50,673 nucleotides of DNA, taken from positions 1 to 50,673 of the forward strand of contig JBHEKP010000150.1 in assembly GCA_041859375.1 (NCBI GenBank). Reading direction: 5' to 3'. Position numbers and translations under genes: made by a program. The notes below the pieces were generated by a model. It had not been told where the DNA came from. It made no database searches and saw only the letters and a list, made by a program, of their open reading frames with translations. This stretch comes from Candidatus Hydrogenedentales bacterium. Its GTDB lineage: Bacteria; Hydrogenedentota; Hydrogenedentia; Hydrogenedentales; CAITNO01. Positions 1,950 through 48,830 of this stretch are shown piece by piece (within the stretch, counting starts at the first letter, position 1; each line of letters opens with the position of its first letter).

Positions 1950-3083
1950 TTACCGCTCAATACGTTTCCAGTTGTTTTTGTCTGTAGCGTAGGAGAGACT
2001 TATCGTCACCGCCGCCTCATACGAAAGCGCCATTACCCCCTCGGCCGCAGCCCTTCGTTCCTGCTCGGCAAGTGCTTCCGCCCGCACATCAGGCATCATA
2101 CTGAGCAATAACGCCACGGCATGATCCGCGCGGGTGGGGTATGGAACCAACACGTCGCCTTTGGTTTCCTGATAAGGCGTGATGTCTTGGGTGAAGGGCA
2201 ACAAAAATTCTGCAATTTCCGGACGTCTAATGTAAACGAGTTCCCCGGCGTTGTCCAGTAGTTGCTCCGGTGTCGAACTATTCCGCATGACCGTGGCAAT
2301 ACAGGCATGGATGTCTGGAGACTCATAAATGCGCGCGCTGGCACGCATCGCCGCCCAAGTCAACGAACCTTTCCACGTCTCACATGACAGCAGCCTGGCG
2401 GGTTCTGTTTCGCCGCGTATTTGCTTGTCAAGCTCAATGGCCTGAGCAAGATGGGGTTTGACCGATTCCATGCCCGCCACGCCGCAGGCGCCAATCAAAA
2501 AATTAAGCGTTCCGGTACTGTCCCTTTCCTGAAGAAGTAATGCCAAGGCCTGTTCCATGGAATTCCTCGCCGAGCCTGAAAAATCACGGCTTAGCGTGAA
2601 CAAGCGCATGCCATCCCGGATAACAGCCAATGCCTCGCGCCGTCGCCCCGCATCCTCCTTGTTTCCCAGCCAGTCCAGCATGGATGCGGCCAGTGTTTCC
2701 ACAGCGGAAACACGGATTTCCAGATTAGATGAATTCGCTGAAAAGGCCGCGTAATTGCCGTAGGCTTCCCGCATGACCCAGATTGAAGGGTCATGGAAAA
2801 GCGGGGGAAACATTGGGAGAAATATTTCGGCACCCCGCTCACAAAGATCCCTCACATTAACCAACGAGGGGTCTATACTGTTTGCATGTTGCCTGACTCC
2901 CGCCACATAACGTGCGAAGAGTTCCTCATTTGAAAATTCTTCGAGCTGTTTTCTTCTCGCTTCGTCAGTATTTATGGTAGCGTTATTGTCTGATTGGCCT
3001 TGAGCAAGTCCAGTAATTATAAAAAAGGCCATAATTGAAAAAGCGACTACTCTGTATCGATAAATAACTAACACAAATTCCAT
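1950..3083 (-). CDS. Hypothetical secreted protein (alpha-helical, function unknown)
   Basis: The start was moved to ATG 3083 (MEFVLVIYRYRVVAFSIMAFFIITGLAQG signal peptide), preceded by GGAG (complement of 3091..3100). It begins 19 nt downstream of the 3103 stop of the upstream gene. GC is intermediate. Confidence 0.65.
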   Translation of the reverse strand: MEFVLVIYRYRVVAFSIMAFFIITGLAQGQSDNNATINTDEARRKQLEEFSNEELFARYVAGVRQHANSIDPSLVNVRDLCERGAEIFLPMFPPLFHDPSIWVMREAYGNYAAFSANSSNLEIRVSAVETLAASMLDWLGNKEDAGRRREALAVIRDGMRLFTLSRDFSGSARNSMEQALALLLQERDSTGTLNFLIGACGVAGMESVKPHLAQAIELDKQIRGETEPARLLSCETWKGSLTWAAMRASARIYESPDIHACIATVMRNSSTPEQLLDNAGELVYIRRPEIAEFLLPFTQDITPYQETKGDVLVPYPTRADHAVALLLSMMPDVRAEALAEQERRAAAEGVMALSYEAAVTISLSYATDKNNWKRIER

Positions 3084-3102
3084 AATAAACTCCTTTCCTC
3101 TA

Positions 3103-4311
3103 TCAATATTGCCATTTTCCAGCAACTTCCTTATGAATCTGATCCCATTGATCTTTTCTAAGAACAGTATTCGTGCCAATTGGAACTGAATAACCCATAA
3201 GATTTGATGTGTCATAATGTAACACTGCGTTTGGATTCTCAGACTGGTAAAAATCAGGTAGCTTCCCTATCATATGTCCAACTTCATGAGCAATTGTTTG
3301 AAAAAAAACAGGTTGATTAGATGAGCATGCCACAAACCCAAAGCGTCCTCCAAGGTATGCATAACCTCCTGCATTTTGTATATATGGAGGAACTATAAAA
3401 ATTACATAATTATTATTTCCGAATATTTGGCCACATGAATCGATTATTGCTTGGGGTTCTGTGGTGGTTTTTTGTATATTTGGATTTACATAAGGATCTT
3501 GATATTGTTCAAAATTCAAATATTCATTATTATCTAAATCATATACAGATTGCACTAAATTTGGATACAAGATTACATTAAATTTCACTACACATTGATT
3601 ATAGACAATATTATTAAGAAAGTTTTCAAGCATTGTAGAATTTAATAGGGTGCATTGTTGATTAATGACAACAACTTGAAACAATAATGTCTTTGGCTCC
3701 TGATATGCCACTACATTCAAACCACCTAAAATTTCCCCTGTAGCTGTGCTAAATGCATGAAACCCTGTCTCTGCTTTATCCATTATAGAAGCGGCATTAA
3801 GGCGAGTCCCATTAACATTATTACAAATATTTGCGTCACGAACTGTAAATATCTCCTGACTATTGCTAACAGAAAATTCGGTATATTCTCCCCCTTTTAT
3901 TGATAACCAAGAAAATACTGTATCAGCCATATATAATCGTTGATCAAAACCATATTTCGTATTAACATTTTTTGTAAATGATATTGGCCACGGGAAAGAA
4001 TTATTTAATGCACGTTCAATTAGATAAAGCGCCGATATGTTTCCATAATCGTCAATAATAAATTTCGGGGATGTATCAACTGGGCTATTTGATTTTATAA
4101 TAAGCTCCTTGTAATTTGAATTTTGAATTAGGGGCGGAACTTCCGTTTGGTTTGTCACAAGGGTAAAGTTATCTTTGTAAGATCTATTTATTTTTCCATT
4201 TATATAAAGCATATCGCTATTTCTACTAGATCGGACAAAATTACGACCCAATTTACCCAAAAAAATTTTTTTTCTTTGTATAACTATATCGTATTTTTCT
4301 GTGCTTGTCAA
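3103..4311 (-). CDS. Zincin metallopeptidase (HExxH; M64/reprolysin-like arrangement)
   Basis: C-terminal ...GGYAYLGGRFGFVACSSNQPVFFQTIAHEVGHMIGKLPDFYQ...SNLMGYS contains an HEVGH zinc site followed by a possible Met-turn. GC is ~32%. No signal peptide is seen at the listed start. Confidence 0.7.
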   Translation of the reverse strand: MTSTEKYDIVIQRKKIFLGKLGRNFVRSSRNSDMLYINGKINRSYKDNFTLVTNQTEVPPLIQNSNYKELIIKSNSPVDTSPKFIIDDYGNISALYLIERALNNSFPWPISFTKNVNTKYGFDQRLYMADTVFSWLSIKGGEYTEFSVSNSQEIFTVRDANICNNVNGTRLNAASIMDKAETGFHAFSTATGEILGGLNVVAYQEPKTLLFQVVVINQQCTLLNSTMLENFLNNIVYNQCVVKFNVILYPNLVQSVYDLDNNEYLNFEQYQDPYVNPNIQKTTTEPQAIIDSCGQIFGNNNYVIFIVPPYIQNAGGYAYLGGRFGFVACSSNQPVFFQTIAHEVGHMIGKLPDFYQSENPNAVLHYDTSNLMGYSVPIGTNTVLRKDQWDQIHKEVAGKWQY

Positions 4312-4689
4312 GTGCTGTTTTATACAAAACTAGTAGAAAGGCCTTTTCAGGAGAAGCGCTCTCCGTTTAAATTATTAACTACCTGCAGAACCTGTGGTAT
4401 GAGGAAGGACCCTAAAAGCGACAAAATAGTGATGCCTTGTATGCATGTCGTGCAGGCCGTATGTGATTGTGTTCAAGAGTATCCGCTGAACTTTAGCCCA
4501 TTCTTTTTTGTCTCAAATTTTAATCGGGGCTCAAAGAGAGGCCTGACATAGTTTGTATCTTAGCATGGTTTTTCGAATAGGCTTTAGCCATGTGACTTCG
4601 CTGGAGATAACGTGGTATTCCTTTGATTGCCCACGCTGGAACAAGGGAGCCGGTAGGTTAACTTTAATTTGGGGACTGTACACCGTCCC

Positions 4690-4866
4690 GGCATGGCGGG
4701 ACGCGCCGGACGCGGGTATAATGCCCCCCAACCCGGCAAGGAGGCGGACGCCATGGGCGAACTGATTTACACCTTTGCGAGCATCGCCTCGCGCTTCAAA
4801 AACGGAACCACGGCGCTGACGGGCATGCGCCGGCTGGCGGACACGCTGCACCCGCTCGGGGTGCCC
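4690..4866. repeat. Direct repeat copy B (intact promoter and 5' end of gene 4753)
   Basis: Partner of 1610..1777; the near-identical core is 4717..4866. Confidence 0.9.
4717..4744 (+). promoter_or_regulatory. TATAAT -10 box (4717..4722) and AAGGAGG RBS (4738..4744) for gene 4753
   Basis: Perfect TATAAT hexamer and a perfect Shine-Dalgarno 8 nt before the ATG at 4753. The same elements are duplicated at 1626..1653. No convincing -35 was seen. Confidence 0.5.
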
Positions 4867-6078
4867 GTGACCTGGCTGGTGAGCCCGGACTCGGCACGCG
4901 CCGCGGCGGCGCAAATCACGGAATGGCACGACGCCTTCGGCGACGAGGTGGCGGTGGCCCCGCCGGAGCTGTCCATCTCCCACCTGGTGGCCGACGCGCC
5001 CTACGGGGCGAGGCGCGACCGCTATGCCGCCGCCCGCGACGCCATACAGAAGGTGATGCCCTGGGCGGAGTGCGCCGTGGCGGCGGGCCACACGGACCCG
5101 GACATTGTCCGCATCTGCGCGGAGCTGGGCTTTGAGGGGCTCTGGGGCTTCTGCTGGGAGCAGATTGAGGTGGACGACATCACCGACCGGGGCTGCCCCT
5201 GGGGCTTTTATTACATGGACCGGGACGACCGGCTCCGTCCCGCGCGGGGGCGCGGCCCCGTGGCCATGGAGTGGACCGCCCACGACCTGCTCAAGACCTT
5301 CCACAGCGGCAGCCCCTGGCTCTACTCGACGGATCCCAACGATGTGGGGCGGGGCGGCCTCTGCGCCTGGGAGGACACGGACTACTGGAAGGCGGTGGCG
5401 GACCAGTACCTGCGGAACACGCGGCACAACGGCCAGGTGATCCTGCTCCAGCACCAGGAGTCGCACGAGATGGAAATCGCCGACGGCTGGCGCTGCTACA
5501 CGGAGGAGGACATCCGCGAGGCGCTCGTGTTTCTCGACGCTTTTGTGCGCCACCTGAAACCGAAGGCGCGCATCATGACCCTGGCGCAGGCGGCCCGCGC
5601 CTACCGGGAGCGGAACGAACACACGGCGTCCTCGTACATGCTGTGGGACGACGTCCCCGCGCCGCGCCACAACCCCGACTACGCCTGGAACAACTGCCCC
5701 GGCCCGTGGCCGAGGACCTTCCTGTTTTACGACCGGGACGCGCAGATGGTGTTTGTGGACGGCCAGGTCCATCCCGTGTGCCTGCGCAACTATGGCAAGG
5801 CCTGGGACCGGCTGGATTACTACGCGGAACACCGCATCCCCCGCCCGAAACTCATCCGCAACACCCAGTTCACCTGGAGCCGCGAGATTGAAATTGTGGT
5901 GGAAAGCGACCGGGCGCTGCCCTACGGGCTCACCCTCTGGGGCGATTACAGCCTCTACCAGTTGGGCGACTGCCCGGGGCTGATAGAGGGAAAAATCCTG
6001 CCCCATGAACTGCTTTTCCTGAGGTACGACCTGCAACCGGGCGAAAACCGCCTCCTCATCCGGCTCCAGGGGAAATAG
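4753..6078 (+). CDS. Conserved hypothetical protein (family not recognised)
   Basis: Host-like GC and codon usage, with a strong RBS. The start is taken at MGELIYTF rather than at the upstream ATG 4669. Length is 441 aa. Confidence 0.7.
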   Translation: MGELIYTFASIASRFKNGTTALTGMRRLADTLHPLGVPVTWLVSPDSARAAAAQITEWHDAFGDEVAVAPPELSISHLVADAPYGARRDRYAAARDAIQKVMPWAECAVAAGHTDPDIVRICAELGFEGLWGFCWEQIEVDDITDRGCPWGFYYMDRDDRLRPARGRGPVAMEWTAHDLLKTFHSGSPWLYSTDPNDVGRGGLCAWEDTDYWKAVADQYLRNTRHNGQVILLQHQESHEMEIADGWRCYTEEDIREALVFLDAFVRHLKPKARIMTLAQAARAYRERNEHTASSYMLWDDVPAPRHNPDYAWNNCPGPWPRTFLFYDRDAQMVFVDGQVHPVCLRNYGKAWDRLDYYAEHRIPRPKLIRNTQFTWSREIEIVVESDRALPYGLTLWGDYSLYQLGDCPGLIEGKILPHELLFLRYDLQPGENRLLIRLQGK

Positions 6079-6196
6079 CCCCAAAAAAAGGGTGGCCCCC
6101 CGGTGGGTGGGACTGGGGGGCCTGCATGCCCCATGGGGGCACGCGCAAGGGTTTCATGCAATTGGACCCGCCGCCGCCCGCCGGGGTTTCGCCCCG

Positions 6197-7075
6197 TTAA
6201 TATCCGGCTTCCGCCGCCGCGCGGCGCAGGTTGGCCAGGCCCAGCGTGATGCCCCTGACGGGCTCCTCGATGCCCTCGAATTCCAGGGAAACGATGCCGT
6301 TGTAGCCCGCCCGTTTCAGAATCCCAAGGCACTGCGCCACCGGCACCTCGCCGTGGCCCAGCACCGCGCCCCGCAGCCGGTTGCCCGCCCGCGTGGGAAA
6401 CCAGCCCCCGCCGGGGTCCGGCGACGACCCCGCCTTCCAGTGGAAGTCCTTGGCGTGCACATGAAACACATACGGCGCCAGCCGCCCCACCGCCCGCGCG
6501 GGGCCCTCGTCGGCGCACATGAAATTGCCCAAGTCCAGCAGCACCCCGAAGTTGGGGTGATCCACCGCGTCCACCAGCCGCTCCACCCGTTCGCTGTCCT
6601 GGCAGAAATAGCCGTGGTTTTCCACCATCGTCCGGATGCCCATCTCCGCCGCATGCTCCGTCACCATGCGGCAGCCCCGCGCCATGCGCGGCAGCGCGCT
6701 GTCAAAACTTTTCAGTCCGCCCCGGTCCGGCGGCCAGCCCCAGCCCGCGTCGTGGCGCATCATCGGCGCGCCCAGCGCCGCCGCCACGGCCAGTTCGCCC
6801 CTCAGCCGCCCCACTTCCGCCTCCAGGCACCCCCCCGAGCCGCACAGCAAATCCGCCGGTATGGTGTACGCCGCCACCTCCAGGCCCGCCGCCGCGCAGG
6901 CATCGCGCACCCGCGGCGCGAAGGACAGGGCGTCCGTCCCCTCCGGCGGCAGCAGCCCCGCAAACTCAATTACCTCAAACCCCAACTCCTTCGCCTTCGG
7001 GATGATGTCCATGAACCCCATCGCCCCCGCCTCCACCGCCTGGCTGAAACTGTACGAACTCACGCCGATCTTCAT
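6197..7075 (-). CDS. Sugar phosphate isomerase/epimerase (xylose-isomerase-like TIM barrel)
   Basis: MKIGVSSYSFSQ... start with a GGAG RBS. ENHGYF, HVHAKD and GIVSLEFEG motifs are typical of the AP-endonuclease-2/xylose isomerase-like TIM-barrel family. Confidence 0.85.
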   Translation of the reverse strand: MKIGVSSYSFSQAVEAGAMGFMDIIPKAKELGFEVIEFAGLLPPEGTDALSFAPRVRDACAAAGLEVAAYTIPADLLCGSGGCLEAEVGRLRGELAVAAALGAPMMRHDAGWGWPPDRGGLKSFDSALPRMARGCRMVTEHAAEMGIRTMVENHGYFCQDSERVERLVDAVDHPNFGVLLDLGNFMCADEGPARAVGRLAPYVFHVHAKDFHWKAGSSPDPGGGWFPTRAGNRLRGAVLGHGEVPVAQCLGILKRAGYNGIVSLEFEGIEEPVRGITLGLANLRRAAAEAGY

Positions 7076-7225
7076 GCGCCGCTCCTTCTCCCCGGCCCGT
7101 CTCCGCCCACTATAATCCATCCCGCCCCGCGCCCCAAAACACTGAACCGTGGGGGATGGGAAAAAGGGTGGCCGAACCCCCTCGTTCATCTTTATAATTG
7201 TCGAGGTGTTAACCGCCCCAGCGGG

Positions 7226-8401
7226 ATGGAATGGAGGAATCGGAACGTGTCTACTGCGTCAAAATGGTTCTATTGGTTCAGTTCCCTCGCCATGCTGGGC
7301 GGATTTCTCCTCTTTTCACCCAATGCCGCCGCCGACACATTCAAACGGACACCCGCCAACGGCGAGGATGCCGTGTGTTATGACATTAGCGCCGACGGGA
7401 ATATACTTCGCCTAGACTATGCACAGCAGAAGATGACGGTTCTCGGCACTGTGCCATTGAAAGGGAGTTCGCCGGACATATGCGTGTATGGGGCGATAGC
7501 CCCTGATGGTCGCGCGGCGTGGCTGCTCTTTCAAACATTAAAGGCCAACTGGACGCACAGTGCGCTGCACCATTTCGACATGGCGGAACAAAACCTGCGG
7601 GCGGCGGGCCATACGATCGAGACCGCCGGGGACTTCGCCATGGTCGCGGCAAGTTCCATGGCGTTCTATTGCGCGGAAACACCTTCAGAACCGGCGCTGC
7701 TGGTGAGGAAAACAGCCGATGGTTTTGAGAAACTCACCGCGAAATTCACCTTTGGCGGATGGCGCATTTTTTCCACCGCACCGGGTGGTGCTCTATTCTT
7801 GAGGCCCAATGCATACGGACCCGGTTATCTTTGTATTCAAACGGGCAGCGGCAGCGTTGTCCGGCACGGCACGGCGGAGGTTTTATGGGGCAGACAGGAT
7901 GTCTCGCGTGTGGGAATCAGCAATATTTGTGGTAACTACGGTCTGGTTGGTTGTGGGGCATCCGACGGCACACGTCTTTGCGCCATTCAAAACCTTGAGA
8001 CAAACGAGACCATTGCGGTTATTCCAAATGTTCCCGAAGGGGAGGCCGAGGCATGTCTGCACCGAATTGGCAGGGAGACACTGGCCATTGATGTTTTTTG
8101 CGGCGCCCATAACATCACCACAAAGGAGTTCCAATATTCAGGGCTTGTGAGGCGGTATGTTGTTGATCTCAAAAAGAAGTCCTTCTCAGGCCCCGAGGAA
8201 TTCAACTTTGAGCCCGCCACACAATTGATGCTCCGTGTGGGGACGGAACTCAGATCATGCCCCAGGCACCACTTCGGCTATGTGGGCATGCGTGACTTCG
8301 CGCATGGCGTTCAGATGGACACGCCTCTGGAAACATGGGATGACCGGACGCGACGAATTGACTTGTTGCGGTCCCGGCTGGCTGAAAAGCAGAATGAATG
8401 A
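7226..8401 (+). CDS. Hypothetical secreted or membrane-anchored protein
   Basis: Only the 3' part of listed ORF 6092..8401 is plausible. The start is ATG 7226 (MEWRNRNVSTASKWFYWFSSLAMLGGFLLFSPNAAA). GC is ~52%, intermediate between backbone and island. Confidence 0.6.
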   Translation: MEWRNRNVSTASKWFYWFSSLAMLGGFLLFSPNAAADTFKRTPANGEDAVCYDISADGNILRLDYAQQKMTVLGTVPLKGSSPDICVYGAIAPDGRAAWLLFQTLKANWTHSALHHFDMAEQNLRAAGHTIETAGDFAMVAASSMAFYCAETPSEPALLVRKTADGFEKLTAKFTFGGWRIFSTAPGGALFLRPNAYGPGYLCIQTGSGSVVRHGTAEVLWGRQDVSRVGISNICGNYGLVGCGASDGTRLCAIQNLETNETIAVIPNVPEGEAEACLHRIGRETLAIDVFCGAHNITTKEFQYSGLVRRYVVDLKKKSFSGPEEFNFEPATQLMLRVGTELRSCPRHHFGYVGMRDFAHGVQMDTPLETWDDRTRRIDLLRSRLAEKQNE

Positions 8402-8423
8402 TGCGCCGTGAAGAGACGGCAGG

Positions 8424-8447
8424 AAAGCGGAAACCCGCCGCTTTTTT
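8424..8447 (+). terminator. Possible intrinsic terminator after 7226..8401
   Basis: Short hairpin AGCGG-aaacccg-CCGCT followed by TTTTTT. Confidence 0.4.
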
Positions 8448-8674
8448 CGCGTGCCAATCATACCCCCAAAACGCCTTTCTCGTGGCCGCAAAGGACAATC
8501 TTCCCGACTCGGTCTGTTAAAATATACAGGCAGACATCAAAACATGTCCAAGACTCCCGCCCAAACAGCCTACTTCTGCCGTATATGGCGGTTAAAAAGG
8601 GTTGATTTTTTGAAAAAGACATGGTATCCTACAATCGGTTCAGTTAAGAAAATCAACTTAAAGGAGGAAGTTAC

Positions 8675-9340
8675 ATGAAAAAAGTAGCGATTTTTGTCTG
8701 TCTCATGTTGTGTTTTGGTGTTCAAGCGGGTGGACAGATTCCAGATCCGGTTACCTGTCTGTATTGCCCACTTTCTTCAATACCAGAGGGAACAACAGTG
8801 CTTTCATCATGGTGTAAGTCTCAAGTCAGTAAATTGGTACAGTATCAGAATCCCGTATTCACGAAACTGGCACCACAATATGTTTATGCAGGTGGCTGCA
8901 ATGATCCAGCACCGAAAACAGAGGTGTCTACGCTAACAATAGGTAAAAATCAGGAAACAAGTTGGACAATCTCTGGGGGAGTGGAGGGTGGATGGGCGCT
9001 TGGATGGACAGTAACGGGCCATTTTGAGGTAGGTTGGACTGGAACTTGGGGAGAGACAACAGAGGTTTCGGTTACGATGACCAGTGTTAGCAAAGGCAAT
9101 GAACGAATCAGAACAGAATTTGAAGTTACACGCACGGATTGGTCTAGTTATTTTGAAGAGACAAAAAGTGGCTTTATGGTATGTCATTATATTGGTGCAT
9201 CGCCAGACACAGGATTTTTAGTCCCTTGTCCAACAACAACCGAAAAAATAGATGGCAAGCCTGGAATAACACTCATGGCCAAAGAAAAAAGTGCTGTAAA
9301 CGATTGTCCTCCTCCGACAACTATTACATGTGATAAGTAA
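8675..9340 (+). CDS. Small secreted Cys-containing beta-rich protein (unknown function)
   Basis: AAGGAGG RBS and signal peptide MKKVAIFVCLMLCFGVQAGG. The central alternating Gly/Thr/Trp stretch is TLTIGKNQETSWTISGGVEGGWALGWTVTGHFEVGWTGTWGETTEVSVTMT. Confidence 0.7.
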   Translation: MKKVAIFVCLMLCFGVQAGGQIPDPVTCLYCPLSSIPEGTTVLSSWCKSQVSKLVQYQNPVFTKLAPQYVYAGGCNDPAPKTEVSTLTIGKNQETSWTISGGVEGGWALGWTVTGHFEVGWTGTWGETTEVSVTMTSVSKGNERIRTEFEVTRTDWSSYFEETKSGFMVCHYIGASPDTGFLVPCPTTTEKIDGKPGITLMAKEKSAVNDCPPPTTITCDK

Positions 9341-9450
9341 ACTATATCATACTTTGTTTTTTTGTATGGGATAAGTGTGTTCTTATTCAATCGTACAATT
9401 TGCTCGCAATAATTTATGTCAAGGTTGAGACAGAGTGGGAGGTGTTGAAA

Positions 9451-10839
9451 ATGAAATACTTTATTATATCATTTTTAATTCTAGCTACAAATATTAAATT
9501 AGCTAATGCAGAAAATAATAATAATGACGCATCAAATTCCTACGAATACTCTCAAACATCAATAAAAAACAAATTAGAAGCGCTTAAAACAAACAGTAAC
9601 ACGGATGATATTATTGAGATTATAAATATTGGAAAAAAACTTGAAATTATGGGGGATGATATATTAGCAACAGAATGTTTTGAGACCGTTGCAGTTTATG
9701 GTAAAAATCATATCGCTTATCGCTTTTTAGCTGCGGAAGCTGCAATAAATTTAGTGCTTTCTATGGGCTCAAATAGTTATTATCGCGCATCAAATTTACT
9801 TGAATTGGAAGTCTCATTAGCTCCTGAATTGCTAGCAAAGACACCAAAAAATATCAATAATGAAGGGTCAAAAATTAATATATTAGCCTGTTGTCCTGAT
9901 ATTCTTAGGGCAGAGATTATGGTGAAAACACAAAATTACTATTTGGCAATTCCCCTGCTTGAAAATATAATTTCAAATTATGATGACACACTAGGTAGAC
10001 TTGATAAAAAAACATTGCTTAATACAGGAATAGAGGAAAATGAGATATATGTTTGGCTTATTTTATGTTATGTAGATAATATTAAAAACAACAATTACGA
10101 TCGTAATAAAAACGAAAATAACTATGAAAATATATATAAAATTTTACTTAAATATATAGAAAATAGCAATAAGGACAACGGGCTTGATAGTCGCATTGTT
10201 GATAACATACCAGTGTTGTTAAATATATTTAAAGGGCCAGATGGGATTAAAAAAATTGAACAAATAATTCAAGTGGCTGGATTAAGTCGTGCGAAAATGT
10301 TGATGATTTTATTGGTATATCCAGATGAAGAGGCTCGCAAATTAAACACTACTGGTGAGGAAATGGATATTGCATACAAGCAATATTTATGTCTAGTAGA
10401 AAATTGTTTTGAAAACGAATCAAAAAAAGAATATTTAGTCGATTTTAATTTTTCTCGATTAAGAAATGCTATGCGAAAAGCAAAAAATCGTGAATTAGCA
10501 GATTTAATTATTAAGGACATTATTGAGATATTTCCCCTTTCGGAAGATCAAATGATAACTTTTTCTAGCCTCCAAATAGAATACGTTAATACGTTTTTAG
10601 ATGGTAAAATTAAAGATTTGCCTTTTGCGGAAATTGCAGTTGCAGCCAAAAAACTCCTTCCAAAACAAGAAAATGGGTTAAATGAGAATGGTACAATCAA
10701 GAACAATTTAAGCGGCAATAATGTGAATAATTACATCAATGATAGCAATTTTACTAAGCAGACATATATATGGGTAATTGTATTTTTTATTGGAATGCTT
10801 ATAGTTTTCATTGCATATATTATTCGAAAGCACAAGTGA
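9451..10839 (+). CDS. Hypothetical secreted helical-repeat protein with C-terminal membrane anchor
   Basis: Start at ATG 9451 after GGGAGG. Signal peptide [20 protein letters not shown] and C-terminal [22 protein letters not shown] followed by RKHK. Composition is Asn/Lys/Ile-rich. Confidence 0.7.
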
Positions 10840-12554
10840 TGCTTCCTTATCAAATAAACATAAATAATATTTTATTAACACCATATTTCTTTTCAATAAT
10901 ATTCGCTTTTGGTTTTGGTTATTTGTTGTTAATGGCGATTTCTAGAAAAATATACAATATTAAAAATATTGATGTATATTTTTTGTTTTTTGTATTTGTC
11001 GTCGCAATGGTGTTTTCGCATATTTATTGGTGTATTGAATATGGTGCTAATATTTTTTCATTAAATGTATTTAATTTATTTTCTCCTGGGCATGTATTTT
11101 ATGGTGGTCTATGTGGAGGGGTAGTTGCTTCTTATTTCTACGCCCGAATAAAAGGAATAAGATTTTTAACTTTATTAGATATGCTGGCTATCCCTACAGC
11201 TATTGGGTATGCAATCGTTCGCATTGGATGTTTTTTTACAGGGTGTTGTTATGGAAGAGAAACTGATTGTATATTTGGGGTTTCGTATCCTCCATTTGTA
11301 AAGGGTCCATATGCGCTGCAAGTGCATTATGGGAAGATTACGGTCCTATCTGACCATTCTATGCCTGTTCATCCATCACCCCTCTATTTATCGCTTGGAA
11401 GTATAATAATCGCTATTTATCTATCATATTGTACATTTAAAAAATGTTATCAAAGTGGTGAAATTGTAAAGAAATATATCATATTGTATGGCATCTTGCG
11501 CTTTTTTGTAGAATTTACTCGACAGAATGTCGGGAGTTTTTATATGTGGGGGATGTCCGGGGCTCAGTTCATATCACTCGGAATTATTTTTATTCCCATA
11601 TTTTTATCTTATATAGGCACCTGCCAATTTATATGGCAAAAGGGCATAAGAAAAAATAAAAATAATTCTAATGGTTTTTCTCTTGTTGAACTTCTTGTAG
11701 TAGTTGGCGTTTTGATCATGCTCGCCTCGTTGCTGTTACCGGCTCTTTCCAGCGCACAAGAGGCTTCAAGGCGATCTAGTTGTCAGAATAATTTGCGCCA
11801 ATGGGGAATGGCTTTTAAGATGTATAGTTCAGAGGCAAGAGGAGGATATTATCCTCCTATACAGTTAGAAATGACCGATCTTCGTAAAGGTGCTCTCGCA
11901 ATTGCTCCTAAACTAGATTCGATTTATCCAGAGTATGTCCCCAGCCTTGATATTTTAACTTGCCCAAGTGCAACGCATAGAATTAATAAAATTGACTTAT
12001 TTCGGGATAGAGGAAATATGGATCGATGTTATGCATATTTGGGATGGGTGTTAGACAAATGCGAAGAGAGTGGTCCGCGTATGACAGTACGTGAATTACT
12101 CGATTTAATTCCTTTTGTGGATTCAGATTTATATCAAGGCGAGCTAGAGGGACCTCGGCAATTCGTCCTACTTTGCGCTGCTATAGCTAGGAGGACTATA
12201 ATAGAATCTATATTTACATCACAGAATATTTTAGATATTAGTCGCAGGGTTGCTGCCACTGATGTAACTGTATGGGAATCTGACATTGGCAATGGAAATA
12301 CAAGCACCATTTTCCATATTAAGGAAGGAGTTGAACGATTCGCAGAGTTGGCCGAGAGCAACGTGTGGGTTATGTTTGACGCAATCTCTTCCGATGTGAA
12401 TCGTTTCAACCACGCTGTAGGTGGTGTGAATGTACTATATATGGACGGGCATGTTGAGTTATTACGATATCCAAGCAGGGCGCCTGTGAATAAAGGGATG
12501 GCATTATTTTTAGGAACTATTCTTGATAGACACTGGCTTCCGGAGTCTGAATAG
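10839..12554 (+). CDS. Fusion protein: Lgt-like (prolipoprotein diacylglyceryl transferase family) membrane domain + prepilin-type pseudopilin with H-X9-DG-like C-terminal motif
   Basis: The start overlaps the upstream stop (TGATG). The N-terminal half has Lgt-family motifs ([39 protein letters not shown]). At 11673/11676 there is a prepilin cleavage/methylation site [32 protein letters not shown], then [16 protein letters not shown] and [16 protein letters not shown]. Confidence 0.75.
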
Positions 12555-12829
12555 AGTGAATTGCTGAGCGGTATTTATCACTGTGAACCAAAGATCGTTG
12601 TGAGTGATATGAAATTAGATTTTAGGTCTTTTTCGTCGGTTCGTGTTGCAAAAGGCGGGATGCCTAATTAGGAGCATTTTTGCAATCAGCCGTGGGCCAC
12701 TAAGGGAACTCTAATAGATCTCCGGAAGCACCGGCAATTTAAGGAATGATTGCACGCACCATCGCCGTCGGCAAATGCAAGATTACGGCGTCTGGGATTG
12801 CCGGACAAGAGGACCGCCCCATTTTTGAT

Positions 12830-12951
12830 GCCCCAACGGGGCTGTGCAACAAAGCCTTGGGCTGTCCCGCCCCGAAGGGGCTGGACTACCTAGGGTAAGG
12901 CGGAACATATGGCCAACCTATCCTGTAGAGATTGCGCAGCCCCGTTAGGGC
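12830..12951. repeat. Imperfect inverted repeat / structured intergenic element
   Basis: Arm GCCCCAACGGGGCTGTGCAA (12830..12849) matches the reverse complement of TTGCGCAGCCCCGTTAGGGC (12932..12951) at 18/20. An inner hairpin GTCC-c-GCCCC-gaa-GGGGC-t-GGAC lies at 12864..12886. Confidence 0.5.
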
Positions 12952-19183: not shown

Positions 19184-19768
19184 GGCGCTCTTTCAAAAAA
19201 GGAAACCCGGGATGGGGCGCGTTAGGGAACAGCCCCTTCCGGCGGGGCTATTCCATGGCCTGTATTGTACACGCGCGCCGCCCCGCCGCTCCATCCTTCC
19301 CCACCGGGGCAGGCGCGCCGTTGTGGACAACAACGCACGCATATATGAAATAAACAAAAAATGCGAATATGGCGCGCAAAAAAAACGATGACCAGCCGTT
19401 TCCACTAATATTTTTGTTGAAAAAAAGTTGTTTACAACCTATGATTTGACTAGAGCACAGCACTTATTTTGAATGGGCCGTGTTTCCACACAACCCATAT
19501 TCAATTTTTTTTGTCCTTATGTTTTTTGAGGCGCACATCAGTCGGCCTTGCAACGCACAAGGAAAACCGTGGTGAAAAAATGGATGGCGTGCACCGGGGG
19601 GGAAGCGGCGCTTTTTCCCAACCGCCACGCATCCACCCCCTCCACCCCCGTCCTTTCCCGCCATCGAATCCCCTCCCTTGGTTTCCAACAACGAACGGGC
19701 CGCACACTGGCCCGGAGTTGCGCGGTATTTTCCCGCACCCGTTCCGATCAAAAGGAGAATGCGAACTA

Positions 19769-22700
19769 ATGCAAACATCCACCACTTCCCCGGCCGCACG
19801 ATTCTTCGGAGTTTCCCTTGCCGCGGCCGGAATGATGCTGTGCGCTTTTCTTTGCGCCACAGGCGCGCAGGCCGCCACGCTTGACGACCTGTACAAAAAC
19901 AGCGGCTCCCCCTCGCTGGGCAGGGTGGTTCTCGCCCCGGGAGACTGGGTGACCATCAACACGAGGAATGCCGGCGGCGCCAACCCGACCTTTGTGGTCA
20001 ACGGCACAACAACATACACGGGTGTTGCGATAAATTACGGCCAGGGTGAAGTGGCCGTTTTTTATTTCGATCACCTCAACGTCCCCGAAGGTGTTGACAT
20101 CACGGTCACCGGCACCCGCCCCCTGTCCATCGTGTCCGACAATGACATGGTGTGGGGTGCCTCCGTGCTCGTGCCCGCCGGACAGCTTGGCGGCGGCGCG
20201 GGCGGCGCGGGCCGGGCGGGCGGCGGCGGCGGCGCGGGCGGCGGCGGCGGCGCGGGTGGCCGGGGCGGTTCGGGCGGCGGCGGCGGCGGCGGCGGCAACC
20301 GGGTTGGCGGCGGGAACACCACGGGCGGCGCGGGCGGCCGGGGCAGCGCGGGGCTGGACGGTGTTTCAGGCGGCGCGGGCAATTCGGGCGGCACAGGCGT
20401 GCAGGGGTTTGCCGGCGGGGCCGGATTCGGCGGAACGCCCGCGCCTGCGGGCGGCGCGGGCGGCGGCAGCGGGTCCGGCCTGGACGGCGGACTCCGGGGC
20501 ACCGGCGGCCCCCAGACGGGCTTGACGGCCGGGGGTATTCTTACAGCGGACGAACTCCATGTGCCGGTGGACACCGGCTTTTTGGGCATCACGCTTCATG
20601 CGTATATCCGGGTCGGCCTGGGTGGTTCGGACGGCACCAGCAATCCGGGCAACGCGGGCAGTCCGGGCAATGACGGCCTGGCGGGCCAGTCCGGCGGCCA
20701 GGGTGCGGCGGCAGAGTATGACAACACCGGTTTGGCGGACACGCTGACGCTGGCGGCGGGTTCGGGCGGCGCGGGTGGCGGCGGCGGCGGCGGCGGTGCG
20801 GGCGGTGCGGGCGGCGGCGGCGGTGGCGGCGGTTCGGGTGGTGCGGGCGGCGGCGGCGGCGCCGGTTCAACAATCAGTGTTTCCGGACTGGACTGGCTTA
20901 TTGATCTGTTTTTTGGCGGCCGCGACATCGCCGGGTCGGGCGGCGGCGGCGGCGGTTCCGGTGCGGGCTGTTCGGGCGGTTCGGCGGGCGCGGCGGGCGC
21001 GGCGGGCGGCCAGGGAAGGATGAAGAAGAATGCCTCTCCGGGCAACGGCGGCGCGGGCGCCGGGGCCAATGGCGGCGGTGGCGGCGGCGCGGCGTCTCCG
21101 GGGGGAAGCGGCGCGGCGGGCGGCGGCGGTGTCGGCGGCACGGCGGGCGCGGGCGGCACGGGTGGTTCGGGTGGTTCGGGCGGTTCGGGCGGCGCTGGCG
21201 GCGGCTCCTTTGTGCTTGCGGCGCGCGGCGTGCTTCAAATCATCGGCGCGCCGATTTTTGACGTTTCATCCACCGGCGGAACGACGGGCGCCGGCGGCAA
21301 CAACGGCGCGGCGGGCGCGGGCGGCACGGCGGGCAGCTCGGGCGGCGCGGGCGGCGCCGGACCTTCAATTATCATAGAAAACGGCACCATTGCCGGGCTT
21401 CTTGGGTCAAACGCGAGCCTTTTGAGCAAGGGCGGCAACGGCGGTGACGGCGGCAAGGGCGGCACGGGCGGCGCGGGCGGCCGGGGCGGCAAGGGCGGCA
21501 CGGGCGGCGCGGGCGGCCTGGGGGTGCCGGGCATGGTCAAGCTCCAGGGCTCCATCATCCTTGTGGACGATCAGGCCACCGTGGCGGCCAACAACGTGAA
21601 CGGCGCCACCGCCGCGAAACGGAACGGCTTCTTTTCGCGCATTTCGAACATGGGGCAGCAGCTGTTGTCGGACAACGTTCCCGCGTTCGACGCGCCCAAC
21701 ATCAACCGGGGCGTGCTGACCAACCCCACGGCGATCCAGGGCCCGAACTCCTTCGACGCCGATCCGGGCCATCCCTTCATCGGCGAGCTTCGCAACAGCA
21801 ACCAGGCCCTGCCTTACCGCATGGCGGACACGGAGGGCTTCCTGGACACGGCGGGCGGATTCTGGAACCAGGCCGAGATAATCCCCGGACAGTTCCCGAA
21901 CCTCCGCAACGTGGAAATCGCCCGTGTTTCCGGCATATTCAACGGTTACGATCAGATTTATGTGAGAAACAGAAGCGCCGTCACGGCAAACGGCGTGATG
22001 CTCAACGTTGACGGCGTGGCGACGCCGCTGCCGCCCGAGCCGGGCTCCTCGGTTCCGGGGAGCATGTCCCCCGGCAGCGTGTTCACCACGACGGTGGCCA
22101 GCACGGTTTCCTATGTGGGTCTTGGCGCGGGCGTGATGACCTTCGCGCCGCCCGTTTCCAGGACGGCGACGGTCAACAGCACCGTCGCCCTCTCCGTGAC
22201 GGTCACCCAGAGCAACGGCACCCCGACCTACAGGTGGCAGTATTACAACCCGGACACGGGCCTTTGGGTGAACTACACGGGCGCGAACGCAAACACCCGC
22301 GCCATCAGCTATGATGTTGACTGCGCGCCGCTTTACGAGACGGACCGGTTCCGGTGCGTCATCGAGGACAACACCCAGCAGGTCATTGCGGGCCCGGCCA
22401 CGATCACCTATGTGGACGTGCCGATAACCTTCAACTCCCAGGCGGGCCCGGTGGGGATCAGGGTGGGCGACACGCCGCCCCCGATAATGGTGGACGCGCA
22501 GGGCGGAAACGCCATGACCTATTACGGCCCCCCCGGCAATTTTGACTTCCAGTGGGAGCGCCTCAACCCGGTGAGCAACCTTTGGGAGCCGCTCGCCTCG
22601 AACCCCGGCAATTACACGGCCGCGGGCGACCAGTTGAGCCTTGCCAACGCCCAGCTTTCCGACAGCGGCTCCTTCCGCTGCGTGGTTTATGACGCGCCCT

Positions 22701-25700
22701 TCCCGGGGTGCAAGGTGTCGCCGCCGGTGGCGACCGGCGTTTACCTGATCACCGTGTACGACAACCTCGCGATCCGCACCCAGCCCCAGGGGCAGACGGC
22801 GCATCTGGGCCAGGACTTCCTGCTCTCGGTGGATGTTCCGGAGACGCTGAGGAACATCACCTACACGTGGGAAAAATTCACCGGCACCCCGCCGGCGTCG
22901 GGATGTCCCGACCCGCTTTCCCCGAACTGGGCCCCCGTTCCCGGGGCGTCCGGCACGCCGAAGCACATGATGGCCGCCGAAACCGCCACCGACGGCTACT
23001 ACCGCGTGACGCTGGCGGATCCGCTGGGGAGCGTGGTGCGCTCGGACTGCGCCCGCATGACGGCGCTCCCCTTTGCCCTTTCGCGCGAGCCGGAGGATCT
23101 GTACGCGTACACGGCCGCGGTCCCGCCGCAAATCGAGGTGGTGGCGGAGGACGCGCGGGGCACGGTTGAGTACCAGTGGTTCCGGGTCGGCGCGAAGGCG
23201 CAGATCCCGATTCCGGGCGCGACGGGCAGCACCCTGTCCTTTGCGTCCCCGACGGTGGGCGAGGAAACCTACCAGTGCCGGGTGGTTGACAACACCGGCG
23301 CGCCCTCGCCCGAGGAAATATGGACCCGCCCGGCGAAGGTCCGCGTGGCGAAGCCCTTCACGCTGCTGCAGGGTCTTCAGGACGATCTTGCCGCCGCCGA
23401 GGGCCAGCCGAAGACCTTTGCCGTGCAAACCGAGGGAGGCCTGGACGTGCATTACCAGTGGAGCAGGGATGGCCAGCCCATCACGACGCCGGACGCGCCC
23501 GTTTACACCATCCCCTCGGTTTCACTGGAGGACGCCGGCATCTATTCCGTCCTGGTCACCTATCGGGGCGGATCCGTCTCGTCGTCGGCGAACCTTCAGG
23601 TCAGCGGCGGGGTGCCCGCGGCGTCGCCGTGGGGCCTTTGCGCGCTGGCGGCGCTGGTCGCCTGTGCCGCGGCGTGGCTTCTTTGCCGCCGCCCGTCACG
23701 GCGCGCGCTGCTGCCGCTGCTGCTGGCGGGCCTGATGCTCGCCGCCTCGCCGGCGGGCGCGCAGACCGCGCCGGACTTTGACAAGGTGCTGCTCGATCTC
23801 AAGGCGGTGCTGAGCAACCTGTTCACGGTGAACGGCACGGACACGTGGAGCGGCGGCGCCTCGCCCATCTACCAGCGGGTGCAGGGGCAGTCGGGCTTCG
23901 TCGGGTACGATCTGAGCCTTGCGAAGCACGGTGGCAACGGCATAGACAGCGACGACTACTTCTCGCTGGTCGAGACGATCGTGAACACGAGCCAGACGTG
24001 CACGCCGCCCCTGAACACGGTGAACCCGAGCATCATCCCGAACATCCGGTCGGCCTACTGGGTTTCGCGGAACCAGGTCAGGAACCTCGAGCTGACATTG
24101 CGCAACCTGAACGTGCACATTAACAACCTGTCGATATCGGGCATGAACTTCTCCAACCTCGACATTCTCGTTCCGTCCATCACGACGGGCCAGGAGAACA
24201 CACTTCTTGGCTTCCCGGTGGACATTCCCAGCCTCTGGACCAACAAGTACCCGGCGGGCAGTTCGGGCCTGCTGGCGGACGCGGTTGAGCTTCAGGGTCT
24301 TACGGACGCGAACGGGAACCCGGTGGTGTACGACCTTGAGAACTGCCTGATGGACGTGGGCGCGGCGGTCATGACCACGGGCGACGAGGCGGCCATCAAC
24401 TGGTACCGCGGCCTTGTGGGCAACCTCTGCAACGGCATCATCCAGAACGTGGTGCCCAAGCTGCTTGAGGGCATCGCGGGGAAGTCGCTCGACAAGGGGC
24501 TCACCGAGTCGCAGCAGAAGAGCGTGGCCGATCAGCTTTACGCGGCGTCCATCGCGGGCTCGGTGTACGTGGTGTCGGACTGTGCCGGCTGCGAAAAGCA
24601 GGACAAGGCCCTTTACGTGATGACGGGGTGCTCGACACAGGTCATCAACGTTAACATCAACGAGCCGGGGACCGTTGTGAACGGATCCGTCACGATCAAC
24701 GGCGCGGATCTCTGCACCTCCCTGAACGAGGCCATCGGCCAGTTTGCCTGCGGCGCCTATCCCTGCCAGACGGCCCGCCTGGCGTCCACGGGTGATTTGA
24801 ACATGGACGGCCGGACCAACCGCGCCTCCTACGCCCTTGTGTCGGGCGCGCGCGGCGCCTGGTTTGAGGCCGAGGCGGCGGACTTCCCGGAGATTAATGT
24901 CCAGAACTGGCCGGCCCAGCCGGTCAACCCGACCTTCCTGGGGACCATCCCGATGGCGGTTGACGTGGACCACACCCGCGCGGGCGCGCCCAACTACCGG
25001 TTCAGGCTCTACAGGCGCGCCACGCCCGCCGAGCCCTGGGTGCAGGTTGACACCTCGTCCGGTTCATACAACACTTCGACGGGGGTGTACTCCTTCAGCC
25101 TTGACGTGAACTGGCTCCAGGAGCGCCAGTTCCTGTGGACCGTTGAGACCGGCTGCGGCACGGGCCTGAAGCAGTCGCAGGTGTACGCGATCAACGTGCC
25201 CGCGCCCGCCATCACCTTCAACCCGGCGCTGCCCGCGGCGCAGTGCGTGCGCGAGAACGATCCCTTCAGCTTCACGGTTTCGGCGACGTGCCCGCAGGGC
25301 AGCCTGTCGTACCAGTGGCAGCAGGACAGCGGCGCGGGCTGGGCCAATGTGGCCGGGGCGACGGGCCTCACCCTGAGCAGGCCCCAGGCCTCTGCGCAGA
25401 CCCACGCGGGCGTGTACCGCTGCGTGGTGACGAACACCCTCAGCTACCCCGGGGGTTCGGCCTCGTACTCTGCGTTTTCGCCCACGGCCAAGCTGAGCGT
25501 CCTGTATTACCACACCCAGCCGGGCCAGTTTGTCTCGGTCCTGATGGGCACGGGATTCTCCCTGTCGGTGCGTCCGGCGGGCGGCAACGTGGCCTACCCC
25601 GTTCCGTTCTCCGTCCCCGACGCGCAGTACCTGCCCCAGTACACCTACCAGTGGTATCTCAACGATGTGCTGATTCCGGCGGCGTCCAACGCCACGGCGG

Positions 25701-27171: not shown

Positions 27172-27221
27172 TTGTCCGGTTGATGTGCGGCAGACGCCGC
27201 GGTCCGGCCACTTTAAGGGTC

Positions 27222-27251
27222 TTGTCAGCAAGGATAGGCCTCGGGTATTAT
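27222..27251 (+). promoter_or_regulatory. Candidate promoter TTGTCA-18-TATTAT
   Basis: Hexamers at 27222..27227 and 27246..27251. A homologous block upstream of the ABC operon reads TTGCCG-18-TATCAT (33736..33765). Confidence 0.35.
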
Positions 27252-27335
27252 GAACACAGAGTTGAAAAAGGTCCGTTTCCAAACTGAGGGGCGTCCTCGT
27301 CGCGGCGCCCCCGGCATGATAATTAAATGGAAGAC

Positions 27336-27367
27336 GGGGCGTCCCCATCGGGGACGCCCCTGTTTTT
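27336..27367 (+). terminator. Intrinsic terminator inside the leader of gene 27417 (attenuator candidate)
   Basis: GGGGCGTCCCC-atc-GGGGACGCCCC (11-bp perfect stem) followed by TGTTTTTG, 50 nt upstream of the ATG. Confidence 0.6.
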
Positions 27368-27416
27368 GCATTGGCGTTATGTGTGTGAAGCACCGCAACA
27401 GGTTGGGAGTCACGGC

Positions 27417-28487
<1,071 letters not shown>

Positions 28488-28534
28488 CCATGGGCGCCCT
28501 CATCCAGGATTCAACCCCGTCAGGGAGCATGATT

Positions 28535-33691: not shown

Positions 33692-33731
33692 GGCCGGGCC
33701 GCGGCAGACGCCGCGGTCCGGCCTCTTTTTT
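33692..33731 (+). terminator. Strong rho-independent terminator
   Basis: A 14-bp stem GGCCGGGCCGCGGC / GCCGCGGTCCGGCC (one G-U pair) with loop AGAC, followed by TCTTTTTT. Confidence 0.85.
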
Positions 33732-33829
33732 GGGATTGCCGGAAAGGGCAAGCCTCGGGTATCATCAGCGAACGGCTGATATGGGTTGATTTCCGCACCA
33801 CGGCAACGCAGGGAGTACCGGTCACGCCG

Positions 33830-38095: not shown

Positions 38096-38197
38096 AATAG
38101 CCCCCCGGACCAGTTTGTTCCACTATTCACAGATTAGACGGCATCCCGGGGCCGCCTTTCCGCATGCAGCGGACAACATGTGAAGGATTTTTTGCAC

Positions 38198-45173: not shown

Positions 45174-45411
45174 ACGGGAAGAACCAAAGACATTGACAAA
45201 TCACAACAACCCTGATAGTTTACTGGCAAGTCGTGACAAGAGGGGGAGGTTGGCATGGCGTTGGGCCGCAAAAAAGGGAACCAGATGGTGAGAGAGGATA
45301 TTTTTACGGATGTTCGGGTTGTCAAAAGTGCATCGTATACCAACTCTGGAAGGCATTAAAACGATTTTTAGAAAACTAAATATATGCACAACGAGCAAGA
45401 AGGAAAGTTCC

Positions 45412-46311: not shown

Positions 46312-46501
46312 ATTTTCCCTGTATATGGATGTCCGGAACATGGAGGTTTACAGTGCTAAAGACATCGCCAAATTGGTGCTGCGTGCCAACGACTACCAAC
46401 TCTCGGCGCTCCTGCTGGTTCTGGAGCATGGACACCGACAGACAAGGAGAGTGTGCGGAGGAATATTGCGCAGATGAAATGCCAACACCGAGAGACATAA
46501 T

Positions 46502-48579: not shown

Positions 48580-48762
48580 ATGAACAGCAGCCGAGATCAA
48601 CTTCAACAGTGGTTGAACGAGCCCGAGGGGTCACATTTTGAATTTAAAGAAGCAAAAGGCGGTTACTCCTTTGACAAATTGGTGGATTATTGCATCGCAC
48701 TGGCGAATGGGGGGGGCGGCACACGGGCTTGTTTGGCCGCCTTGAGGACAATAGCCGCTTAG
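48580..48762 (+). pseudogene. 5' remnant of an AlbA_2/Schlafen-type putative DNA-binding (divergent AAA) protein gene
   Basis: EGSHFEFKEAKGGYSFDKLVDYCIALANGGGG matches the conserved N-terminus of this family. After a G8 run the reading frame degenerates and stops. The remainder is replaced by the Xre-ImmA module. Confidence 0.55.
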
Positions 48763-48780
48763 CATTAGCCAAAGGGGCGG

Positions 48781-48809
48781 TTGACAAAATACGTATTATA
48801 ATGCATAAT
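48781..48809 (+). promoter_or_regulatory. Near-consensus sigma70 promoter TTGACA-17-CATAAT
   Basis: Hexamers at 48781..48786 and 48804..48809. A GAGGAG RBS at 48817..48822 precedes ATG 48831. Confidence 0.65.
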
Positions 48810-48830
48810 GTCAACCGAGGAGACTGTGCC

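Follow-up and report, generated by a model that had tools for sequence, protein, structure and literature searches.

An Lgt-like membrane domain fused to a DUF1559 pseudopilin in a Candidatus Hydrogenedentales bacterium: a rare architecture with split relatives

Lgt, the phosphatidylglycerol:prolipoprotein diacylglyceryl transferase, lipidates the lipobox Cys of its substrates. The Escherichia coli Lgt protein (structures 5AZB/5AZC) has its N-terminal strand in a periplasmic head and crosses the membrane with seven transmembrane (TM) helices (PMC4728403). Residues Y26, R143, G154 and R239 are essential (PMC4728403, PMC13251419), H103 and N146 likewise count as essential, and E. coli variants H103A/N/Q/R/Y and E151A/Q fail to complement (PMC4728403). 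Among natural Lgts, a survey records the replacement of H103 by Tyr, Trp or Phe and of N146/E151 by Cys or by Cys/Asp, and the Leptospira Lgt, which carries N146C, restores E. coli partly (PMC13251419). These Cys-type Lgts, for example those of Leptospira interrogans and M. smegmatis (MSMEG_5408), are stand-alone proteins of about 240-290 aa, and accessory second lgt copies are also found next to likely clients, e.g. a plasmid lgt beside conjugation lipoproteins (PMC13251419). The DUF1559 prepilins of Planctomycetes, Verrucomicrobia, Lentisphaerae and Hydrogenedentes are made with a leader of 3-25 residues that has its own Met. Here we describe a gene in which an Lgt-like 7-TM domain and a DUF1559 pseudopilin form one protein (Table 1). 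It lies on contig JBHEKP010000150.1 (assembly GCA_041859375.1) of a Candidatus Hydrogenedentales bacterium, in a stretch of 50,673 nt that was analysed as a whole and is called the window below. The fused frame is genuine, and sequence comparison identifies its two parts as a fusion/fission pair inside a conserved gene cassette.

The mechanical reading frame spans 10770..12554; the biological start is the ATG at 10839, which overlaps the stop codon of the upstream gene by 1 nt (TGATG) and gives the M-x-P N-terminus that the alignment finds in all orthologues. A first-pass annotation, made from the DNA letters, had read this frame as an N-terminal half with Lgt-family motifs, a basic linker, a canonical prepilin peptidase site at residues 279/280 and a DUF1559/H-X9-DG body, and the profile searches largely bear it out. 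PF01790 (LGT) matches residues 6-256 over profile positions 4-237 of 240 (E 4.3e-40, 138 bits, cut-off 24.9), and the motifs that had been named, FFVEFTRQ among them, are all present. The linker, 17 residues with four K/R and no D/E by charge count, leads to the cleavage site G279/F280-SLVELLVVV (the slash marks the cut), with Glu at +5; this site stands 279 residues into the protein, behind a 7-TM domain, and not near the protein's start. In the pilin half PF07596 (DUF1559/SBP_bac_10) scores 31.8 bits (cut-off 23.3) at residues 305-335, which covers profile positions 2-32 only, and TIGR04294 (H-X9-DG) scores 20 bits against a cut-off of 19. The family of the body is thus as annotated, but its motif counts as H525-x10-D536-G537 and not as X9. 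PF07963 (N_methyl, residues 275-299) falls 0.2 bits short, and its precomputed matches to the orthologues P0002 and P0004 are weak wherever their strength is stated. The protein scores 96.3 bits with the lgt equivalog model TIGR00544, under the cut-off of 118.9, and far under the cut-offs of the NF0007xx subfamily models and of the GspG and PilA equivalog models. The annotation had also found no start codon in the linker from which the pilin could begin independently; a scan of the 40 codons preceding G279 returned no in-frame ATG, GTG or TTG, so that the pilin part would be made only within the fusion in this organism.

A frame of this kind could be an artefact, in which an assembly or sequencing frameshift, or a chimera, merged two genes. 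Indeed, there is an abrupt shift in composition around the cassette, no Logan contig continues through a short repeat 230-260 nt past the end of the gene, and one orthologue (L004) does have a frameshift, though within its Lgt domain. We nevertheless give an artefact next to no chance because: (i), an independent Logan contig of 7975 nt, built from a single run, matches window positions 4837..12811 at 99.875% identity without gaps and encodes the same protein, and one Logan contig passes unbroken from 72% GC DNA into the low-GC island that holds the gene; (ii), the junction at 11600-11700 is crossed without a difference by contigs of two DNA runs, X1 and X3, and without a difference or a gap by RNA contigs of runs X21 (551 nt, 11386..11936) and X24 (234 nt, 11586..11819); (iii), the same in-frame junction is found in four other lineages and, (iv), a separate pilin would have no start codon available. 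The stretch 11600..11680, where the annotation had advised looking for a hidden frameshift, shows no indel or stop in the DNA contigs of two runs or the RNA contigs of two runs. X21 and X24 are metatranscriptomes of the same study, into whose libraries DNA may have been carried over, and the metatranscriptome depth over the fusion gene is low (4-18). A frameshift or chimera joining two genes is thus ruled out by DNA contigs, RNA contigs and fused orthologues taken together: the Lgt-pseudopilin fusion is a genuine gene, and its fused frame appears to be transcribed.

The annotation knew of no described example of such a fusion, and we found no description in the literature searched, which contains almost nothing on DUF1559; the gene is not a one-off, however. 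The database search for the same architecture that had been suggested brings the public total to five fused sequences: the window's, P0002, P0004, P0241 and P0242, the four others being 29-57% identical. P0004 (595 aa, 38% identity) occurs on 9 contigs from several samples, including two metagenome-assembled genomes (MAGs) of Hydrogenedentes at NCBI, where it is annotated merely as 'prolipoprotein diacylglyceryl transferase'. P0004 and P0002 (56% identity) both came from a word-indexed search, and P0241 (593 aa, 42%) and P0242 (578 aa, 36%) were added when HMMER was run exhaustively against 1.84 billion representative proteins. This pass returned three other clusters with both halves and none further among the best 150 matches, most of which were obtained via the pilin half; in all, 182,079 representatives match the fused protein at E <= 1e-3. 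Judged by these searches, the Lgt-pilin fusion is rare.

Across the five fusions, G/F[ST]L.ELLV always follows a variable, mostly basic linker, and none departs from Gly(-1), Phe(+1) and Glu(+5) (5/5), while the linker sequence is not conserved and the Lgt halves are mutually only 29-46% identical. An internal start before the pilin is absent from four of the five lineages. In the fifth, P0004 on contig L001, an AAGGAG Shine-Dalgarno sequence with an ATG (M278) is found at 8820-8840, nine codons before the cleavage site, and seems to be left over from a pilin gene that once stood alone. The contig of P0002 (L004, GCA_964513635.1) has its frameshift at 1539-1569, which splits the Lgt domain into overlapping ORFs (open reading frames) at 1198-1569 and 1539-2972; either the assembly is wrong at this point or the MAG carries a pseudogene, and the Lgt-pilin junction there is in frame.

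Further relatives carry the same two parts as separate genes. On the 5.1-Mb contig L007, a 537-aa gene is followed by an Lgt-like gene (268 aa), a gap of 16 nt and a DUF1559 pilin gene (320 aa). The 3.5-Mb contig L090 reads 207 aa, 524 aa, Lgt-like (279 aa) and pilin (320 aa), the last two overlapping by 11 nt, and in L009 the separate Lgt-like and pilin genes overlap by 8 nt. In these three contigs the order is that of the fusion and the same upstream genes stand before the pair. L092 reads 228 aa, 500 aa and fusion, as the window reads 221 aa (gene A), 462 aa (gene B) and fusion, and L008 reads 223 aa, 445 aa and Lgt-like before the contig ends.

The upstream genes themselves define the cassette. 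Gene A encodes a secreted Cys-rich protein without a Pfam or NCBIfam match; a gene of similar size occupies its position in L008, L090 and L092, and these proteins of about 220 aa align with a common Cys pattern (signal peptide, CxxC, further conserved Cys). Gene B encodes a helical, presumably periplasmic protein that begins with a signal peptide and ends in a TM anchor and a basic tail, again without a Pfam match. Its homologues lie directly upstream of Lgt/pilin genes in L004, L006 and L008, and its positional analogues in L001, L007, L090 and L092 show weak profile similarity to it (hhalign E 5.8e-4, probability 29%); the upstream proteins of about 450-540 aa have in common a helical make-up, a signal peptide and a TM anchor at the C-terminus, and form two weakly similar groups. 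A homologue search with gene B returned only itself among the 8000 most word-sharing candidates, into which this N/K/I-rich query probably drew chance matches.

In neighbour-joining trees computed without support values, all fused pilin halves fall into one DUF1559 subclade along with a few unfused pilins, and all fused Lgt halves fall into one clade along with the stand-alone proteins P0287 and P0316. The branching order of the two trees agrees, and in each of them fused and split states alternate. Together with the split relatives, this makes the Lgt-like gene and the pilin gene a fusion/fission ('Rosetta stone') pair within a small, conserved envelope cassette of Hydrogenedentes-like bacteria, and since the same two parts are fused in some relatives and adjacent genes in others, the Lgt-like protein and the pseudopilin probably work together. 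The functional coupling that had been conjectured from the window alone gains independent support from these relatives, whose cassettes keep the two genes apart. Scanned with the alignment of the Lgt clade, genomes gave at least 600 matches to the Cys-type pattern across many phyla, so Cys-type Lgt-like genes are common, and none of the 80 best loci from other lineages among these matches has a prepilin/DUF1559 gene within 5 kb (0/80; positive controls worked). A general link between Cys-type Lgts and pilins is thereby ruled out, and as far as these loci tell, the Lgt-pilin link is specific to this clade. The closest relative of the pilin half, P0003 of L006 (77% identity), stands directly behind the upstream gene with a 26-residue leader and without an Lgt domain; apparent Lgt 'remnants' in that leader were judged to be chance 3-mer matches.

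The two halves were modelled separately with AlphaFold2 (AF2), because the joint MAFFT alignment (A3, A4) put Lgt-like sequences onto the pilin half. The model of the Lgt half (pLDDT 90.7) has 5azb as its sole significant Foldseek match (E 1.8e-9, TM-score 0.73/0.72, 265 columns), and a phmmer search against solved structures also finds E. coli Lgt (5azb) alone (E 2.1e-10). The predicted elements are an arm-1 hairpin, TM1-TM4, a periplasmic head (~135-179) and TM5-TM7; like E. coli Lgt, the domain thus has the 7-TM fold with arm and head domains, an outside N-terminus and an inside C-terminus, and it retains the catalytic arginines. The E. coli equivalents that are kept comprise Y26, R143, G145, G154, H196-P197, Y201, Y235, R239, E243 and R246; of these, the residues corresponding to Y26, R143, G154 and R239 (Y16, R128, G139 and R221) do not vary within the fusion clade or among 120 other Cys-type proteins. 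The signature motif aligns with E. coli G142-RLGNFINGELW-G154, in which R143 and G154 are kept while N146 and E151 are replaced by Cys131 and Cys136; the H103 position is Tyr88. About 110 of the 120 closest stand-alone Lgt-like proteins have the resulting R-x-G-C-x3-G-C-C-[YW]-G motif, and known Cys-type Lgts likewise combine Cys at N146/E151 with an aromatic residue at H103. The alignments therefore place the Lgt half in the Cys-type Lgt subfamily; with its lipid-binding and catalytic core retained, it is probably an active enzyme. The earlier label 'Lgt-like' stands as to family and fold, with the correction that this is a Cys-type member and not a canonical Lgt.

What sets the fusion apart from E. 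coli Lgt is, besides Tyr/Cys/Cys at H103/N146/E151, an extra His, an insertion in the head, a score under the TIGR00544 cut-off, the attached pilin and its place in a cassette rather than at a housekeeping locus. Relative to the 120 other Cys-type proteins, the fusion clade is a distinct narrow branch with S60, Y63, W64 and E67 in arm-2/end of TM2, H85 (Leu in the others) beside the HGGL position and three residues ahead of that of H103, Y124, P181 and a head-domain insertion some 12-15 residues long. Protein-substrate specificity has been linked to arm-2, the region of H103 and the head domain (PMC13251419). Since the changes of the clade cluster in these elements, we infer a specialised substrate, and the Lgt half is probably a specialised transferase dedicated to this module and not the housekeeping Lgt. 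It resembles the accessory lgt copies in being an extra Lgt paralogue in a specialised envelope gene cluster away from the housekeeping locus; unlike theirs, its partner is a prepilin and not a lipoprotein, and inspection by eye showed no canonical lipobox in the cassette proteins or the pilin.

The pilin half is modelled (pLDDT 91.2, pTM 0.88) as a 50-residue helix (residues 3-53 of the pilin) followed by a mixed alpha/beta domain. Over its first ~55 residues it aligns with the N-terminal helices of PilE1, geopilin, PilA and GspG, and it shares with GspG, PilE, PilA and geopilin the class III signal-peptide motif, a hydrophobic alpha1-N with Glu5 and the long N-terminal helix; unlike in these proteins, the globular domain has no detectable solved relative (Foldseek against the PDB gave nothing with E below 1) and no assembly genes lie nearby. 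It is a typical DUF1559 prepilin in its G/F[ST]L.ELLV site, Cys36 in RRxSCQNNL, CPS and NH...DGHV. The whole half is 35-77% identical to more than 100 proteins bearing PF07963 plus PF07596, hundreds of family members are 35-50% identical to it, and the stand-alone homologues, also in the hundreds, are named mostly Hydrogenedentes. The family-invariant residues E5, P22, C36, N39, L40, C96-P-S and H...DGH are present, and G279, F280, E284, L285, L286, V287, H525, D536, G537 and H538 are invariant in alignment A1. In place of the short leader with its own Met, this prepilin has a 279-residue enzyme domain. Compared with 224 other DUF1559 proteins, the Lgt-linked clade differs along one face of the TM helix, with G11, S14, S18, L19 and S25 in place of A11, G14, A18, I19 and A25, and it also has R41 and S52; this small/polar face would fit a changed intramembrane contact. 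Cys36 does not mark out the Lgt-linked pilins, being invariant in all DUF1559 proteins.

The arrangement is topologically coherent, as had been argued from general knowledge of both families: with its N-terminus out and seven TM helices, an Lgt ends in the cytoplasm, and hydropathy and charge counts agree, the predicted cytoplasmic loops having 3-4 K/R each in keeping with the positive-inside rule. Prepilin peptidases act at the cytoplasmic face of the membrane, where they cleave behind Gly(-1). With a cytoplasmic Lgt C-terminus and a pilin helix that runs from in to out, the cleavage site would lie at that face. We thus propose that the Lgt-like gene lost its stop codon and the pilin gene its start codon, giving one 8-TM precursor composed of the seven Lgt helices (N out, C in), a basic cytoplasmic linker, the in-to-out pilin helix and a periplasmic globular domain. 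The cell's prepilin peptidase would cut after Gly279 and release a normal pseudopilin with an N-terminal Phe; the free Lgt-like enzyme would stay behind, and the end state would be that of the split-gene relatives. The Lgt domain would in effect be an unusually large leader, made 1:1 with the pilin and adjoining it in the membrane. We favour processing at Gly279 into two cooperating proteins, with the Lgt domain as a giant leader, with some reserve, as the most likely course: split and fused states alternate in the clade, and the linker drifts while Gly(-1), Phe(+1) and Glu(+5) do not change.

Several observations weigh against this proposal and the partnership on which it builds. Known prepilin leaders have roughly 5-30 residues, and we know of no prepilin peptidase that processes a 279-residue polytopic leader. 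The window holds no prepilin peptidase, type II secretion system or type IV pilus gene, and the N_methyl score is just below its cut-off (21.0 vs 21.2 bits). The inactivity of H103Y and of E151A/Q in E. coli means that canonical activity of the Lgt half cannot be assumed. The internal Shine-Dalgarno sequence and ATG of L001 suggest that some fusions may also make the pilin alone, so that independent pilin synthesis may still occur there. P0243 (L091) and P0003 (L006), both on short contigs, have no Lgt gene directly upstream, which would make the partnership dispensable in some lineages and the pilin not strictly dependent on fusion; and the trees of the two halves, as said, carry no support values.

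The same gaps lend some plausibility to a fusion that is never cut, in which the pseudopilin stays tethered to the 7-TM domain and does not enter a filament; the pilin might then serve as an anchored periplasmic binding or recognition module, or the enzyme fold as a mere anchor. A polytopic leader of 279 residues has no known precedent, the pilin cannot be produced by itself in four of the five fused lineages, pilus and secretion machinery genes are missing from the window, and the DUF1559 family is mentioned in only four papers of the literature searched and has no assigned function. On the other hand, were the protein neither processed nor assembled, the constancy of Gly(-1), Phe(+1) and the membrane-buried Glu(+5) would be hard to explain in proteins whose Lgt halves are only 29-46% identical. 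The split relatives make two polypeptides, so a covalent tether is not required, and fused and split states interleave in both trees. We therefore regard permanent tethering as an outcome to be taken seriously but a good deal less probable than processing.

It might also be that the fusion is a neutral or decaying read-through, in which a small indel joined overlapping genes and the function of the pilin part, or of the gene as a whole, has been lost in this organism. Because the genes of the split relatives overlap or abut, a single indel would suffice; moreover, a 27-42% GC island in a 68% GC contig suggests foreign DNA, RNA depth is low over the gene and some relatives have lost the Lgt gene. 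Decay fits poorly, however, with an ORF that is intact across 571 codons and keeps all family-invariant residues of both halves, with a pilin half 77% identical to P0003 despite 42% vs 66% GC, and with a fused state that persists at 36% identity. We consider it improbable, though clearly less so than an artefact.

Beyond processing at Gly279, enzyme and pilin may stand in a closer relation. TM7 borders the side cleft that has been proposed as the entry of the peptide substrate of Lgt (PMC4728403). A signal-peptide-like pilin helix tethered to TM7 and bearing a clade-specific Ser/Gly face would fit an enzyme-client fusion. With a membrane phospholipid, the Lgt-like domain could then modify the pseudopilin to which it is fused, or else the secreted Cys-rich protein encoded in the cassette, an idea that we put forward as speculative. 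Equally tentative is its corollary that the acceptor site would be non-canonical and the modification would take place before or around prepilin-peptidase cleavage.

Table 1. Features of the fusion gene and its cassette (window positions)
Feature	Position	Strand	Details and evidence
Gene A, 221-aa secreted Cys-rich protein	8675..9340	+	signal peptide then CxxC
Gene B, 462-aa helical protein	9451..10839	+	gene call in L005
Fused Lgt-like/pseudopilin ORF	10839..12554	+	571 aa plus stop
Lgt-like 7-TM domain, residues 1-262	10839..11624	+	PF01790, phmmer, AF2/Foldseek, hydropathy
Cys-type signature motif, R128 to G139	11220..11255	+	alignment to 5azb
Basic cytoplasmic linker ('leader'), residues 263-279, ending in Gly(-1)	11625..11675	+	
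Pilin alpha1-N TM segment, residues 280-300, with Phe(+1) and Glu(+5)	11676..11738	+	
Predicted mature DUF1559/H-X9-DG pseudopilin, residues 280-571	11676..12551	+	PF07596, TIGR04294
C-terminal H-x-DG motif (H525...D536-G537-H538)	12411..12452	+	TIGR04294, alignment A1

The window has three low-GC islands (8500-12600, 3000-4500 and 45000-47000; 27-48% GC), the contig being otherwise 64-76% GC. The cassette occupies the first of these (about 8500-12600, 27-42% GC), with a gradual GC gradient on both sides; the Lgt half has 32% GC and the pilin half 42% GC, and L006, the contig of P0003, has 66% GC despite the 77% identity of the pilins. The island could be due to horizontal acquisition or to local compositional drift. 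Its left edge is continuous in one Logan contig, and its right edge runs through a short multi-copy element in the intergenic region downstream of the fusion gene (12741-12907), where every Logan contig breaks at 12787-12816. Over this element the DNA depth is doubled and the metatranscriptome depth is 128, as against 4-18 over the gene. It has two GCCCC-N3-GGGGC hairpins, no Rfam match and a fold z-score of only -1.55, and could be a repeat-borne small RNA or an element like the repetitive extragenic palindromes (REP). Scans of the window for tRNA genes and Rfam families came back empty.

The island at 3000-4500 is bracketed by a 144-nt direct repeat, 99% identical (1634-1777 and 4723-4866), and has two minus-strand ORFs (1950-3215 and 3103-4311) without Pfam matches; it looks like an insertion with duplicated flanks. 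Among the ORFs at 19469-27127, 27327-28487 and 28490-33658 are giants of 2552 and 1722 aa with Gly-rich tracts and 9-nt-periodic GGC-rich repeats. A 94-nt sequence occurs twice (27187-27280 and 33701-33794, 72% identity), once just before ORF 27327 and once over the beginning of ORF 33683, which encodes an SBP_bac_1 solute-binding protein, and the two copies may be a common leader or regulatory element. A gingipain-like Peptidase_C25 with a propeptide domain and an IrrE-like regulator with helix-turn-helix and Peptidase_M78 domains (38180-41152 and 48690-49895) appear unrelated to the fusion.

What is new here is that two known families meet in a conserved, rare architecture that predicts a functional partnership, in sequences that were already public but under-annotated. 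The DUF1559/H-X9-DG prepilins are among the largest uncharacterised families of Planctomycetes-like and Hydrogenedentes bacteria, and Cys-type Lgt paralogues are spread over many phyla with no assigned role. A conserved fusion/fission pair is a rare signal of partnership that comes from genomes only, and the locus thus gives both families a testable partner, within the practical limits of a rare family for which uncultured organisms are the only known source. It also raises the question of whether a prepilin peptidase can handle a substrate with an entire 7-TM enzyme for a 'leader'. Should the Lgt-like domain modify the pilin or the Cys-rich protein, Lgt chemistry would extend beyond lipobox lipoproteins to a new kind of pilin lipidation or head-group modification, and this would be the first function for a Cys-type Lgt paralogue and for a DUF1559 protein.

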